Translations under genes and position numbers: made by a program
Shown here: one piece after another, positions 6,001 through 62,881 of the stretch
Layout of the letters: each line of letters begins with the position of its first letter
Position numbering within the stretch: position 1 is the stretch's first letter
The notes under the pieces: generated by a model
What the model was told of the DNA's origin: nothing
The model's database searches: none
The model's input: only the letters and a program-made list of their open reading frames with translations
Origin: a virus
Lineage: Duplodnaviria; Heunggongvirae; Uroviricota; Caudoviricetes
Length of the DNA stretch: 62,993 nt
Direction: 5' to 3' (one strand)
IMG/VR virus record: IMGVR_UViG_3300033120_000611

Positions 6001-9000
6001 CAACAGATATCCAGATGGAGAAAGAGGTGATAAGCTAAGAGCTTATGATAAAGCCTTAATAGCTCAGGGTAATCCATATACAAATAGATTTAAGGCTAAC
6101 GCTAAACTACCAGTTAGTAACGTCCTAAAGCCTATCTATTCCGGATGGAAGGAAGGTACTGTAGCTGCTCAAGATATACGTAAGATGTCTATTGCTCCAC
6201 TAAGCTGGTCCCTGGTTAAGGGTACTGCTATGGAACCAATATTCATTGCACACATCACAGCTGCTGAACCTACACACTTCATGAATATGGAGTCTGCACA
6301 AAAGGTAGGAGCTGAAATTGGAATGCAACCTATCTATAGTGATGGCAAAGCAAATACTAATGTTAAGCAAGAAAAGCTTAACTTCAAGTACTTTGGTATC
6401 CAAGTAGAGACCAAAACTCAGAAGGATAAGGTATCTCAAGGTACTCAGCTTAATAAGCTTGCTGTCCTTAATCTTGTAATCAATGGAGTTCCTATTGATT
6501 TCATCAAAGATAATAAAGGACTATCTAAGGAAGCTATTCGTAATAAGTGGAACTCTCTATCTAATACTGCTAAGGTACAACAATCAAGATATCATAATCT
6601 TATACAGAAGAATACCAAGTATCTTACTGCTATGAGAGTTATGGCAAAGAATGAAATCTTCGATGAGTTTGGTGTAGTACAAGATGGTAATAAATTAAGA
6701 TTCTCTAATTTTGAGAAGCTAGCTGAGCTAATAGCTAATGAGCTATCTTCCCGGGATGCTACAGAGAATCTAAAGCAAGCTATGACACTTGTCACAAAAG
6801 CTGATGGTACACAAGGATTTGAACTGCCTATGGACCTGGCTATTGGATCTGATCGTCTTGAAGCTATCTTCACATCTATAATCGATAGTCGTATCTTACG
6901 CCCTAAGATGTATGGTGGACAAATGCCTCAGGTTGCTTCTACTCTACTAGAGTCTAAAGCTAAATCCAGAGAATTAGTTCATAAGGATGCTAAGGGTGTA
7001 TGGCAAACAGTTACTGATCTTAATGATCTTAGTCCGGAGCAACGTGGTGGAGTTAGAATAACATCTAATGAACTTAAGTGGTATTCTAAGGAAGAGCCAT
7101 GGATTGAAGTTATGGTTCCATTCTACATGCAGGAACTTATATCAAAGGGACAAACCTTGTCAATAAAAGAATTACAAGATGCAGGTCTTGAGTGGGGAGT
7201 CGGTTTCCGTATTCCTACCCAGGAGCTTAACTCTGTAGAGCATATACGTATTAAGGGATTCCTTCCGGTTGAATATGGTAACTCTATAGTAGTGCCTACT
7301 GAAATCACAACCAAGGCTGGTTCTGACTTTGATATAGATAAACTTAACCTATACCTATATAACTACTCCATCAATCCACGTACTGGAAGGCCGGAGAAGA
7401 TTAAATACCTGGACAATGGTAATTCTATTGTTGAAGAGAGATACGAAGCTCTAAGAAAGCCACTATATACATTCCTTGACTCTCCACAGGGTTATGAGTA
7501 CTACAAGAAGCAAGTAGCTCAAGCTGCTATTACTAAGCTGATTGAGGACAACTCTGAGGATGCTATTGATCCATATGAAGGTAAGATAGATCCTAGAAAG
7601 ACTTACGAAGAGAACCTGAAGATAGCTGATGAGGAATATGAGAAAGGACTTGAAGAGTTTAAGAAGCTACCTATAGAACTACAGAACACAAGAGAAGCTA
7701 TCGATAATGCATATATCGATAACTTAAGAGATATTCTATCAGTGCCGGATAACTTCGCTCAGCTTATTCTTCCTAACTCAGCTAAGGTGCTTAGTGATCA
7801 AGCTGAGGAGATGAATACTCTGTGGGGTAATCATAGATCTAAGACTGACTATAGTGCATTCCTTGATTCTATGAAGAATGCTCAAACAAGAATAGCATTC
7901 CTTGTAGGTAAGGGTGGAGTTGCGATTGGTGCTGTAGCTCAAACTCTTCATGCCATATCTCAGATCAGCGCTATGGAGTTTACTGAGAATGAAGAAGATA
8001 CAATACCATTCCACTTCCCAACTAACTCAACTAAGGATGGAAATCTAAGAACTTATAATCTAGGAGAACAATTAACTACAGATGGCCAGTCTATCTCTAG
8101 TATTATCTCAGCGTTTATAAATGCATTCGTGGATATTGCAAAGGATCCATTTATCCTAGATATAAATGGTGATAAGAGTACTGCCGGCTTATACATAGCT
8201 GCATTCAAATTAGGTATGCCTGTACCTGAGGTGGTAAGATGGTTTAACCAACCTATCATCCGGGAGTATACAAAGATGCTACAACAAGCTAAGTCTACTT
8301 CAGCTGAAGTTACTGGTGCTGACATGACCAAGGCCCAAATACTTACTATACTTGGAGACAAGTTTAAGTTTGATACTAATGGGTACCAAATATCTACAAC
8401 TCCTCGCTCAGGAAACTATACAGTCCAGGAGCTAGAAGGTTATATAAAGGAATGGAGAGATCAGGAGGAAACTAAGTTAATTACTAATCTAGATGGAGAT
8501 GTAATTGATGATAAGACCCCAGGACTTAGCCAAAAGTTCTACGATAACCAAGCTAACCTCCTTGCTGAGTTCAGGAAACTTGATGGTATCACCTGGAGTA
8601 TCTCTGGGGTACAAAATGCTCTTGCAGACACTAAGAGGACAGTTAATTTCGATAGTATCCGGTTAGCTATGGCTAATGTAGTAAAAGCATTAGATGGGCC
8701 TTTTAGAGACTCTCTCATCACCATCCTGGAAGATACCTTCATAGGAAGCATACTTACTGCTAGAGCCCAGGTTCTACAGGCTATACAACCTTTATTCCTA
8801 ACTGAGTCTATAGAAGCTAGAAGAATACTTGGCCCAATGATGACCAGTATCTTTACTGCATTTGGTAGAGCTGATGTTAAAGAAGAGCTTGCAAAGAACA
8901 TGCGTAAGGAGTTCATTAACTATCTATTACAAACTATTCCAGTTCAAATAGAGCCAGGATCAAATGCGAAGGTTCTTACCTCAGCTATAAAGGATCTATT

Positions 9001-59965: not shown

Positions 59966-59992
59966 TTCAATAGTTTTAGTTTGTTAATTAGT

Positions 59993-60064
59993 GGCGATAG
60001 AGAGAATCGAACTCCCAACCCCGCGCCCATGATGCACGTGCTCTGCCAATTGAGCTATATCGCT
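59993..60064 (-). tRNA. tRNA(CAU), atypical (A1-C72 mismatch, loop ATCATGG)
   Basis: Cloverleaf; CGTGC-ATCATGG-GCGCG; T-arm GGGAG-TTCGATT-CTCTC. Confidence 0.75.
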
Positions 60065-61047: not shown

Positions 61048-61278
61048 TTATAGATGATTAGCTACTATTTCATCATCATCTGTAAATACTCTTTCAATAC
61101 CAAGAGTTTCTAGTTCCTTATCAATATCATCTTGTAATTCATCTGAATTGGCTTGATAATATTTTTCTTCTAGATCAGTGAATAGTTTACCAAAAGAATC
61201 TGTCTTATCTTCAGGAACCATGTAAAGACCTACTCTTACGCCTTCACCGTCAACTACTTGCATTAATATACTTTTCAT
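61048..61278 (-). CDS. Hypothetical acidic protein
   Basis: Start trimmed to MKSIL. Confidence 0.55.
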   Translation of the reverse strand: MKSILMQVVDGEGVRVGLYMVPEDKTDSFGKLFTDLEEKYYQANSDELQDDIDKELETLGIERVFTDDDEIVANHL

Positions 61279-61293
61279 TTCAATTTGTTTTAG

Positions 61294-61333
61294 TGTCCTT
61301 AGATGGATTTGAACCAACGACCTTCACATTATG
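61294..61333 (-). pseudogene. 3' half (positions 34-73) of an interrupted tRNA(CAU)
   Basis: CAT-AA-TGTGA-AGGTC-GTTGG-TTCAAAT-CCATC-TAAGGAC-A; pairs with the 5' half at 62291-62326. Confidence 0.85.
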
Positions 61334-61337
61334 AGTA

Positions 61338-61544
61338 TTAGTTCATGAAGCCATAATCCCATTCGTGTATCAGAAAGTTAATGGCTTTGTTCACCTCTGG
61401 ATCATTACCTATATAGATAATTACTCCTTTGTTGATCTTGCCTCCACCTTTGATAATTATTTCCTCAGCTTCACCTATACCATCTGTAGGTTCTTCGTCT
61501 GTGCCCATGAACTGGCTTCTTAGTTCTTCGCTTGCTTGTGGCAT
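61338..61544 (-). CDS. Hypothetical protein (cassette)
   Basis: ORF track; stop codon 4 nt from the cassette junction. Confidence 0.55.
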   Translation of the reverse strand: MPQASEELRSQFMGTDEEPTDGIGEAEEIIIKGGGKINKGVIIYIGNDPEVNKAINFLIHEWDYGFMN

Positions 61545-61599
61545 TGTTAATTTTGTTTAAAAGTTTGAATAATTATGAACTTCTTCATAACTTAGAGTT

Positions 61600-61989
61600 A
61601 TGAAACAATGTATTATTTGTGGAAATGACCTATCCATAACCCAGGTCAAGTATTGTAGTAACACCTGTAAGCAATCAGCCCACTACAAGAAGTTTAAGAC
61701 TGACAATCCTAACTCTACCTACTCTCAGTTCAGTCGAGCTGATAAGAGAAAGAAAGAATTTATCAGACAGCTTGGTGGAAAGTGCTCTAAATGTGGGTAT
61801 AGTAAGAATTATGGCGCTCTCAGCTTTCATCACAAAGGTGATAAGCTCTTTCCTTTGGATTCTCGTAACATAGGTAACAGAAGTTTGGAATCTCTTAAGC
61901 TGGAAGTAGCTAAGTGTGATCTCTTGTGCCTTAACTGTCACATGGAATTACATAATCCTCAGTGTCTCCTACACGATTCGAACGTGTGA
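61600..61989 (+). CDS. HNH endonuclease with N-terminal Zn finger
   Basis: CIIC...YCSNTC; GGKCSKCGY...FHH...KCDLLCLNCH..LH. It is the only credible + strand gene in 46 kb. Confidence 0.85.
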   Translation: MKQCIICGNDLSITQVKYCSNTCKQSAHYKKFKTDNPNSTYSQFSRADKRKKEFIRQLGGKCSKCGYSKNYGALSFHHKGDKLFPLDSRNIGNRSLESLKLEVAKCDLLCLNCHMELHNPQCLLHDSNV

Positions 61990-62037
61990 TCTCTTTCTTA
62001 TGAGGGAAGTGCTTTAGACCAACTAAGCTAAGGAAAC
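61963..62037 (-). tRNA. tRNA(CAU) (Met or Ile2), inside the cassette
   Basis: GTTTCCT/AGGAGAC, A73; loop CTCATAA; T-arm CACACG-TTCGAAT-CGTGT. Confidence 0.85.
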
Positions 62038-62042
62038 GGAAG

Positions 62043-62276
62043 TCATTTTGACAGTTTGATAGATAACCAAGTACCTAGAAAAGCTCCTATCATTGCTGCT
62101 ACAATCATCTGGTTATTGTCTACAATGTAAACTACTACTAGTTTTCCAAACAGAATATTAGCGGACGACCAAAGTCCAGCACTAATAGCCTTGTTTTGAG
62201 CAATCTTCTTAATGTAAATAGCACAAGTACCTTCAGCGAGAAGCATCATCACTATTACTGCTATAAATTTGATCAT
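62043..62276 (-). CDS. Small membrane protein (cassette)
   Basis: Hydrophobic; ends GAFLGTWLS. Confidence 0.55.
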   Translation of the reverse strand: MIKFIAVIVMMLLAEGTCAIYIKKIAQNKAISAGLWSSANILFGKLVVVYIVDNNQMIVAAMIGAFLGTWLSIKLSK

Positions 62277-62290
62277 AAGAATTGTGTTTA

Positions 62291-62326
62291 AGTGTGTTGC
62301 TACTGACCGGGCTGAGCTATAAGGAC
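62291..62326 (-). pseudogene. 5' half (positions 1-33) of an interrupted tRNA(CAU)
   Basis: GTCCTTA-TA-GCTCAGCCCGGTCAGTAGC-A-ACACA-CT; acceptor strand is 7/7 complementary to TAAGGAC. Confidence 0.85.
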
Positions 62327-62398
62327 TTGTTGAGGTGGCCATAATTAAAGACCTTTGGCTCTTAGTATCGGAACGGTCATGCGATCTACCTCAAGTAG

Positions 62399-62476: not shown

Positions 62477-62549
62477 TGGAACCCCTAGGAGTCGAACCTA
62501 GATTGCCGGCTTTTCAAACCGGTGCATTGACCAACTCTGCCAGAGATCC
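62477..62549 (-). tRNA. tRNA-Phe(GAA)
   Basis: CCGGT-TTGAAAA-GCCGG; T-arm CTAGG-TTCGACT-CCTAG. Confidence 0.85.
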
Positions 62550-62556
62550 ATCAAGA

Positions 62557-62862
62557 TTAGTAGTTAGAATATACACTAAATTCATAATCTCTTTTTCTTA
62601 GATTACCATGCGTAACTTTGATTTTTGTCAAATCAAGAATATTTACACCATAATCTAGAGATACCTTAGACCCACTTAATATTTTACAATAGTCTACTAT
62701 TGCATCATGTATAGTTGAACCTGTACCATAAGATCCTATTGAAAGCCCTCCTTCAATCTTACTTAGATTTTTGATCATAACTTGATAACCCTTACGAGTA
62801 TCTTGCCATGTTTTAACTTCTATTTTTCTATTTACGAGAATAGATACTTCATGCAATGTCAT
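62557..62862 (-). CDS. Hypothetical protein
   Basis: ORF track. Confidence 0.55.
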   Translation of the reverse strand: MTLHEVSILVNRKIEVKTWQDTRKGYQVMIKNLSKIEGGLSIGSYGTGSTIHDAIVDYCKILSGSKVSLDYGVNILDLTKIKVTHGNLRKRDYEFSVYSNY

Positions 62863-62881
62863 TTTTAATAGTTTAAGTTAG

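Follow-up and report, generated by a model that had tools for sequence, protein, structure and literature searches.

In an uncultured phage a transfer RNA (tRNA) gene with the anticodon CAU is interrupted between U33 and C34 by an insert of 957 base pairs (bp) that holds no detectable ribozyme and carries an antisense HNH homing-endonuclease gene together with an intact tRNA(CAU) of its own. The sequence is IMG/VR virus record IMGVR_UViG_3300033120_000611 (Caudoviricetes), of which the whole stretch of 62,993 nucleotides (nt) was analysed and is called the window; it is part of the phage genome, the longest contig with its proteins measuring 126,993 bp, and it has a long cluster of tRNA and transfer-messenger RNA (tmRNA) genes on its minus strand. 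The best explanation, considered fairly likely, is that a ribozyme-free homing cassette kills its target tRNA(CAU) and supplies a substitute.

The 5′ piece of the interrupted gene is 36 nt long and ends in CT, and the 3′ piece is 40 nt long and starts with CATAA (Table 1). When joined, they are called as tRNA-Met(cat) by ARAGORN, with 7 of 7 acceptor pairs, 4 of 5 anticodon-stem pairs, the anticodon loop CTCATAA and the T-loop TTCAAAT. The product has the 7-bp acceptor stem, D-arm, 7-nt loop with U33 and T-arm of a tRNA, with one mismatch in the T-stem and a D-stem of 3 bp in a GTAGC variant that it shares with intact relatives, namely L001, L012-L014 and L111 (L numbers denote related loci). 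The split gene was missed by the intron option of ARAGORN, and the 3′ piece matched tRNA weakly and in truncated form (61294-61352, 14.9 bits). A stretch of 23 nt that spans the joint is unbroken in complete tRNA(CAU) genes of 14 other IMG/VR contigs, and the intact tRNA(CAU) of L006, the relative whose tmRNA tag resembles that of the window, is 75% identical to the rejoined gene, against 67-72% for other tRNA pairs of both phages. The whole joint in 14 contigs and the likeness to L006 show that the two pieces derive from a single gene, of a phage tRNA type that can be recognised, and the rejoining into a tRNA(CAU) proposed in an earlier sequence-only reading of this DNA is upheld. The gene was probably an accessory tRNA decoding AUA or AUG. 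No exact match to the T-arm and acceptor of the 3′ piece was found in IMG/VR, none to the D-arm of the 5′ piece in the JGI metagenome contigs, and no relative of the locus beyond single tRNAs among GenBank phages. A third tRNA(CAU) of the cluster, at 59991-60064, has an A1/C72 mismatch and the odd anticodon loop ATCATGG, with G37 and G38.

Read in the sense of the tRNA, the insert consists of an open reading frame (ORF) of 77 amino acids (aa), the cassette tRNA(CAU), the antisense HNH gene, a hairpin and a 68-aa ORF, in agreement with the earlier description of a 957-bp insert in which an antisense HNH gene overlaps an intact tRNA(CAU). The overlap is 28 nt, between the 3′ end of the cassette tRNA and the C-terminal codons of the HNH gene on the other strand. 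Cassette tRNA and rejoined split tRNA are 66% identical and differ at all five anticodon-stem pairs. The two small ORFs noted earlier are present but are not core parts, since a co-occurring strain lacks both; the 77-aa ORF sits between the 5′ piece and the cassette tRNA and was assigned to no family in domain and family searches, and the 68-aa ORF occupies the spot of the catalytic core in related introns. The 3-bp ACT direct repeat is likewise real in that ACT ends both the 5′ piece and the insert, but relatives show nothing comparable, and it probably reflects chance or microhomology. On the plus strand, the promoter-like hexamer pair at 61544-61573 did not score above chance level. The hairpin next to the HNH start is conserved in L023, L028, L031, L111 and L114. 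Of the flanking ORFs, one of 101 aa had no relative in IMG/VR and one of 76/89 aa matched only itself in a large protein collection.

Table 1. Coordinates of the interrupted tRNA gene, its insert and related features (positions in the window unless a locus is named)
Feature	Location	Strand	Basis and remarks
5′ piece of split tRNA(CAU)	62291..62326	-	Acceptor 5′ strand, D-arm, anticodon-stem 5′ strand, C32, U33; sequence and ARAGORN call on rejoined pieces
3′ piece of split tRNA(CAU)	61294..61333	-	C34 A35 U36, anticodon-stem 3′ strand, variable loop, T-arm, acceptor 3′ strand, A73; sequence and ARAGORN
Insert at U33/C34, without ribozyme	61334..62290		957 bp; no Intron_gpI or other ribozyme match at E<=10
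HNH homing-endonuclease gene, 129 aa, N-terminal CxxC zinc-finger-like region	61600..61989	+ (antisense to tRNA cluster)	phrog_2255, E 2.3e-20
Intact cassette tRNA(CAU)	61962..62037	-	ARAGORN; Rfam tRNA 59.7 bits
7-bp hairpin, loop GAAG, then ATTCAAAC (to 61563), just upstream of HNH start	61573..61590	-	Conserved in relatives
68-aa ORF, Pam3_gp59 family, accessory cargo	61338..61544	-	Pfam PF23986, 28 bits, E 2.9e-6
77-aa hydrophobic, membrane-like ORF, accessory cargo	62043..62276	-	ORF list
ORF-less introns	L048:1860-2134; L057:1870-2143		
76-nt tRNA-like gene, copies aligned	L007:5321-5396; L022:3911-3985; L023:3909-3984; L028:575-650; L113:448-523; L089:1348-1423		

No Rfam intron or other ribozyme was found in the insert (61250-62380, E<=10) or elsewhere in the window, and an nhmmer profile of related intron cores had no match in the window's insert. 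Group I, group II, twister, hammerhead and similar ribozymes were likewise absent from the insert and from those of its ribozyme-less relatives. The last base of the insert is T and not G, and an insert with neither the catalytic core P3-P9 nor a terminal G therefore cannot splice itself. The claim that group I hallmarks are missing is thereby confirmed for the insert itself, but it would be wrong to regard the element as unrelated to group I introns, because 33/34 hosts true group I introns with the same HNH family. In L053, L072 and L096 the tRNA(CAU) that brackets an antisense HNH gene also holds a group I catalytic core; L053 and L096 served as positive controls for Rfam RF00028 with 63.6 and 59.4 bits (threshold 50), and the core of L072 was found by the nhmmer profile. 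L048 and L057 have an ORF-less group I intron of 201 nt at U33/C34 of tRNA(CAU), and an HNH gene abuts the 3′ end of that tRNA. All five introns follow a 5′ exon whose last base is U33, have G as their own last base and precede a 3′ exon beginning with CATAA; the window is broken at the same phosphodiester. The insert begins with TAAAC and the introns with TAAAG or TAAAA. Because true group I introns at 33/34 carry this HNH family or lie against it, the window element looks like an intron-type homing element without its ribozyme. In the Rfam alignment of the L053 intron, the window hairpin and ATTCAAAC are also similar to that intron's small hairpin and its stretch from P3 to J3/4; descent of the cassette from an intron is nevertheless plausible but not shown, because the same hairpin is present in the free-standing L111. 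Partial intron-core matches were seen a second time in L048, at 2703-2840, and once in L046, at 2023-2134.

The window's HNH protein has all 20 family-invariant residues, including C62, C65, H77, N112/C113/H114 and H118, and with them the HNH (beta-beta-alpha-metal) motif with flanking Cys pairs. Pfam PF01844 stayed below threshold on this protein and was reached on the homologue P0016. Public assemblies contain 36 homologues with 37-73% identity, and a profile search of IMG/VR gave 80 further HNH loci. Over 93 non-redundant loci, 70 tRNAs lay no more than 150 nt from the HNH gene and 44 of these were CAU or UAU, compared with 27 of 265 tRNAs farther away in the same loci, and the second commonest neighbour was tRNA-Arg(UCU) (10 loci). 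The convergent HNH-tRNA(CAU) pair occurs in many IMG/VR loci. The endonuclease family appears to be specialised on phage tRNA genes.

In a maximum-likelihood tree the window HNH falls in a supported clade of 13 (96/81). In 11 of these (the window, L022, L023, L028, L031, L114, L116, L118, L120, L121 and L122) the HNH gene lies antisense inside a ribozyme-less split tRNA with both halves bracketing it; L113 shows only the 5′ half before the contig ends, and L111 is a free-standing module of a whole tRNA(CAU), an overlapping antisense HNH gene and the same hairpin. The acceptor strands of the bracketing halves are complementary, yet differ from locus to locus, and the HNH stop codon in this clade is within the 5′ exon or at most 3 nt from it. 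The same cassette type in other tRNA genes, which had been suggested as something to look for, exists in the other tRNA-splitting members of the clade and also in a tRNA-Arg(UCU) gene (L103); the design recurs in many uncultured phages. A fixed HNH-tRNA(CAU) module was considered as the unit of the family and dropped; some homologues seemed to have no CAU tRNA, and split halves were then recognised around them. In the public gene calls for L030, a contig identical to this locus, no gene is placed on either strand over the HNH ORF at 61600-61989, and the protein is therefore missing from protein collections.

Internal tRNAs or tRNA-like genes are usual in the ribozyme-less inserts, and most of the 11 inserts of the clade have one with the anticodon CAU or UAU, which extends the earlier observation that the cassette brings a tRNA with the anticodon of the gene it splits. 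A canonical internal tRNA(CAU) is found in the window, L031 and L079. In L103 (1063-2000), an independent case, tRNA-Arg(UCU) is split at 33/34 by an insert of 863 bp whose contents are another, complete tRNA-Arg(UCU), an HNH gene in sense orientation that is a distant family member, and one more ORF. A 76-nt tRNA-like gene without a D-arm lies inside L022, L023, L028, L113, L114, L116, L071 and L089-L099; its loop is CTTATAC (UAU), or CTCATAA (CAU) in L113. The three HNH-carrying introns have no internal tRNA. UAU presumably decodes AUA as a lysidine-modified CAU would, and the two anticodons would be functionally equivalent if the target is a lysidine-modified Ile tRNA reading AUA. Such a target fits because AUA is the commonest Ile codon of the window (32.6 per 1000), a tRNA-Ile(GAU) is already in the cluster and a TilS-family gene occurs in L015. 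The latter (L015:3116-3757) encodes a PP-loop ATPase (PF01171, 94 bits), adjoins an HNH-tRNA(CAU) pair on a 211-kb viral contig and may be a phage lysidine synthetase for the phage's own tRNA-Ile(CAU).

The 76-nt tRNA-like gene has a tRNA-type acceptor stem and T-arm, an anticodon hairpin nested in a 3-bp D-stem-like helix and a TTGGT-containing connector in place of the variable loop. Compensatory changes affect 17 of its 19 pairs in the alignment (Table 1), where 98% of cells are paired. With 30.5 bits the gene barely exceeds the Rfam threshold for tRNAs; it also stands alone in the tRNA array of L007 and may be an unusual AUA decoder. The related tRNA clusters also contain permuted tmRNA genes (Rfam tmRNA_permuted) at L031:2083-2334 (53.8 bits) and L022:5713-5939 (56.8 bits), and L023 has, outside its insert, a type-P1 twister-like match at 7095-7161 with 61.4 bits against a gathering score of 67.2.

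JGI contig L030 is 99.99% identical to the window over 7.3 kb that include both junctions, and Logan contigs from two runs bridge each junction. Since both junctions are bridged in independent assemblies, misassembly, which had been named beforehand as a possible undoing of the whole observation, is unlikely. That the split is an assembly artefact or a two-strain chimera must be rated extremely improbable: the two strains of run X3 do differ at exactly this locus, a setting that can break assemblies, and L030 begins only 46 nt before the 5′ piece, but over 20 unrelated contigs, assembled from other samples, share the architecture. In run X3 the second strain is present at about 53x versus 135x, about a third of the depth, and is about 8% divergent, in blocks, across both the HNH gene and the downstream ORF. 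At its joints 62038-62296 and 61333-61556 are skipped, the sequence running from 61332 to 61557 and from 62037 to 62297 with 3 other letters between. It retains the same halves, cassette tRNA and HNH gene, but the 77-aa and 68-aa ORFs are missing and are therefore regarded as accessory. It also lacks 7 nt of the anticodon stem-loop, C34 included, and therefore no rejoining can restore its split tRNA. The identity of the halves in both X3 strains was considered as a signal of selection and rejected, because the adjoining intergenic spacer is equally identical; this points to mosaic recombination blocks. The second strain further lacks the 101-aa ORF at 62557-62862 (gap 62482-62880) and is identical to the window over the tRNA-Arg/tRNA-Phe block and its spacer; the differences look as if small genes of the tRNA cluster had been gained and lost in mosaic fashion. 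Runs X1 and X2 were set aside, their small shares being only tRNAs of other organisms or a 180-nt piece ending at 62318.

In the favoured explanation, a mobile cassette built around the HNH homing endonuclease would have interrupted tRNA(CAU) between U33 and C34. During mixed infection the enzyme would cut a tRNA gene that is still whole, close to its anticodon loop, and the cassette would be copied into the cut site as the break is repaired; the position of the HNH gene, inside its target gene and at an intron site, suggests such cleavage of the element-free allele and preferential inheritance. The interrupted tRNA, which could not be restored because no ribozyme is present, would become a two-piece pseudogene, and the cassette tRNA(CAU) with its different anticodon stem would resist cleavage and take over the decoding job, making the insertion tolerable to the phage and therefore heritable. 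As to its origin, the cassette would derive either from a free-standing tRNA-HNH module or from an intron after loss of the core. A selfish HNH element in the anticodon loop with a same-anticodon tRNA was also the proposal of the sequence-only reading; the element is supported by the family association, the clade, the recurring internal tRNAs and L103, but the neutralisation of its cost stays an inference. Several points weigh against the explanation. The intact allele anticipated in relatives exists as the uninterrupted joint in the 14 contigs, but no close relative was found to have an empty site at the same locus, and the acceptor stems of the intact relatives differ. Five ribozyme-less inserts (L037, L118, L120, L121 and L122) have no internal tRNA, and compensation is therefore not obligatory. 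The cassette tRNA is on the opposite side of the HNH gene from the internal tRNAs of most relatives and was therefore perhaps picked up by chance, and the split and cassette tRNAs may each be Met or lysidine-Ile, so that the same isoacceptor is not assured. Even in split tRNAs whose anticodon arm is gone, the outer arms are well preserved, which could mean retained function; more plausibly, live tRNA genes would have been invaded recently or repeatedly, donor sequence being co-converted near the break. It is unlikely, though still worth weighing, that the target tRNA was killed as proposed and that the internal tRNA is a passenger dragged along by illegitimate repair, or an RNA-processing or terminator signal for the HNH transcript. 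The free-standing module L111, the many IMG/VR loci with the same convergent pair and the five inserts just mentioned favour this reading. So do a terminator-like hairpin score for the antisense T-arm of the cassette tRNA, where the HNH gene ends, and the place of the internal tRNA in sense-oriented relatives, a short way upstream of the HNH ORF. A passenger would, however, hardly match the anticodon for two anticodons, CAU and UCU, nor be UAU where the anticodon differs, a choice that presumably preserves AUA decoding, and the internal tRNA takes three different positions relative to the HNH gene, which suggests repeated acquisition rather than one accident.

That the halves are still used is quite improbable. 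The precursor would have to be cut at both junctions by proteins, for which an anticodon nuclease paired with a repair ligase, or RNase P and RNase Z processing the internal tRNA, would be candidates, and the halves then ligated or working as a nicked pair; the insert would be a protein-dependent intron or the gene a split tRNA. The exons of the window are complete bar one T-stem mismatch, those of L121 and L103 are perfect, and acceptor stems stay complementary across the family despite different sequences. The break is, moreover, 5′ of the wobble base, where anticodon nucleases are known to cut and phage ligases to reseal, as with PrrC and the T4 enzymes Pnkp and Rnl1. Against this, the anticodon stem-loop (five stem pairs, U33, CAU) is intact in 5 of 5 ribozyme-bearing split tRNAs and in only 3 of the 17 ribozyme-less ones (the window, L121 and L103), the other 14 having lost U33, C34 or stem pairing, although detection needed a complementary acceptor stem and a good T-arm and was thus biased against decayed cases, which also tells against the favoured explanation. 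Splicing therefore seems to keep exons under selection, protein-dependent rejoining is disfavoured, and the comparison argues that the split tRNAs are dead and not rejoined; RNA-level joining, the lesser alternative from the outset, is weakened further. The X3 strain without C34 points the same way, as do the lack of a ribozyme and the genes borne on both strands of the insert. The insert ends are no more complementary than shuffled controls (duplex -12.8 kcal/mol, shuffled mean -11.8, sd 3.0; 35% of shuffles as low), and flanks that could join the halves in the Nanoarchaeum manner were not found. No RNA ligase, RtcB or Pnkp domain was detected among the window ORFs of at least 200 aa, where only a DNA ligase and two metallophosphoesterases were found; this search covered the window, about half of the phage genome.

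Beyond this locus, it is proposed tentatively, and with rather more doubt than belief, that ribozyme-free "tRNA-swapping" homing elements form a distinct, widespread class whose HNH enzyme would cut at 33/34 and install itself and a cleavage-resistant tRNA of the same specificity. If true, the spare tRNA would replace the ribozyme as the device that makes the element harmless, and as a by-product tRNAs, including the 76-nt D-armless candidate AUA decoder, would be spread between phages. Such elements would account for part of the tRNA-gene turnover and patchwork in large phages, and orphan tRNA halves in phage tRNA clusters can serve as their markers and as a warning to annotators. The HNH lineage at the fixed site 33/34 appears as a self-splicing intron, an intron with a neighbouring endonuclease, a ribozyme-less cassette with a spare tRNA and a bare endonuclease insertion; if true, this natural series could be used for studying intron loss. 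What appears to be new is that the U33/C34 break is the site of bona fide phage tRNA(CAU) group I introns carrying or abutting the same HNH family. In the searched literature, no description of this arrangement or of such introns in phage tRNA genes was found, which does not prove their absence.

Known systems that come closest are group I introns of bacterial tRNAs whose endonucleases are anticodon-specific, SegB, collaborative homing at psbA and the splitting of genes by mobE or mobA. In bacteria, group I introns within the anticodon loop of a tRNA are known from Azoarcus tRNA-Ile(CAU) and from cyanobacterial tRNA-fMet, the latter with I-Ssp6803I (PMC13168695; PMC3984707). The window element shares with them its site, the anticodon loop of a CAU tRNA, as well as the U that ends the 5′ exon and a homing endonuclease of the anticodon region; its relatives L048, L053, L057, L072 and L096 are genuine group I introns, with Rfam scores above threshold. 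In contrast to group I introns, its insert has no catalytic core or terminal G, and its site is 33/34, whereas the Azoarcus intron lies 3′ of the anticodon, which fits the exon lengths in PMC13168695. Its endonuclease is, unlike those of the bacterial tRNA introns, an HNH protein encoded antisense and running into the 5′ exon. Free-standing homing endonucleases and intronless homing are known from T4-like phages, with SegB in the T4 tRNA cluster (PMC2330249) and mobE (PMC2790892). As in these cases, a selfish endonuclease resides in a phage tRNA cluster and is presumably inherited when the rival allele is cut and repaired by copying together with its flanks; but SegB is a GIY-YIG enzyme located between tRNA genes of which none is broken, and the window's HNH gene is inside its target tRNA, at an intron site, with a substitute tRNA. 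A free-standing endonuclease gene, lying between genes, is seen in L111 and many IMG/VR loci and not in the window.

In collaborative homing, reportedly described by Zeng, Bonocora and Shub in 2009, the free-standing F-CphI lies beside an intron-containing psbA in cyanophage S-PM2. L048 and L057 have a similar layout, with an intron in tRNA(CAU) and an abutting HNH gene, which suggests that the family moves between intron-borne and free-standing states. The window differs: it lacks an intron that could protect the target and restore it, and the restoring seems to fall to a second tRNA gene. Genes split by endonuclease insertion are nrdA of Aeromonas phage Aeh1, by mobE, and T4 genes 39/60, with mobA. 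There too an endonuclease gene lies within a host gene with no intron or intein and leaves two pieces, but these protein pieces reassemble into an active enzyme, whereas an unjoined tRNA cannot work and the spare copy seems to serve instead. The split tRNA halves of Nanoarchaeum equitans carry complementary GC-rich leaders and are joined by the archaeal splicing endonuclease and a ligase. They share with the window the break near the anticodon loop and the pairing acceptor strands, but the window halves are colinear around a mobile cassette, have no complementary flanks and are degenerate in most relatives. Selfish endonucleases are thought to persist in genes only with repair of the RNA or protein by an intron or intein, or where the gene still functions in two pieces. 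A third way, destroying the target while bringing its replacement, is suggested by this locus and its relatives.

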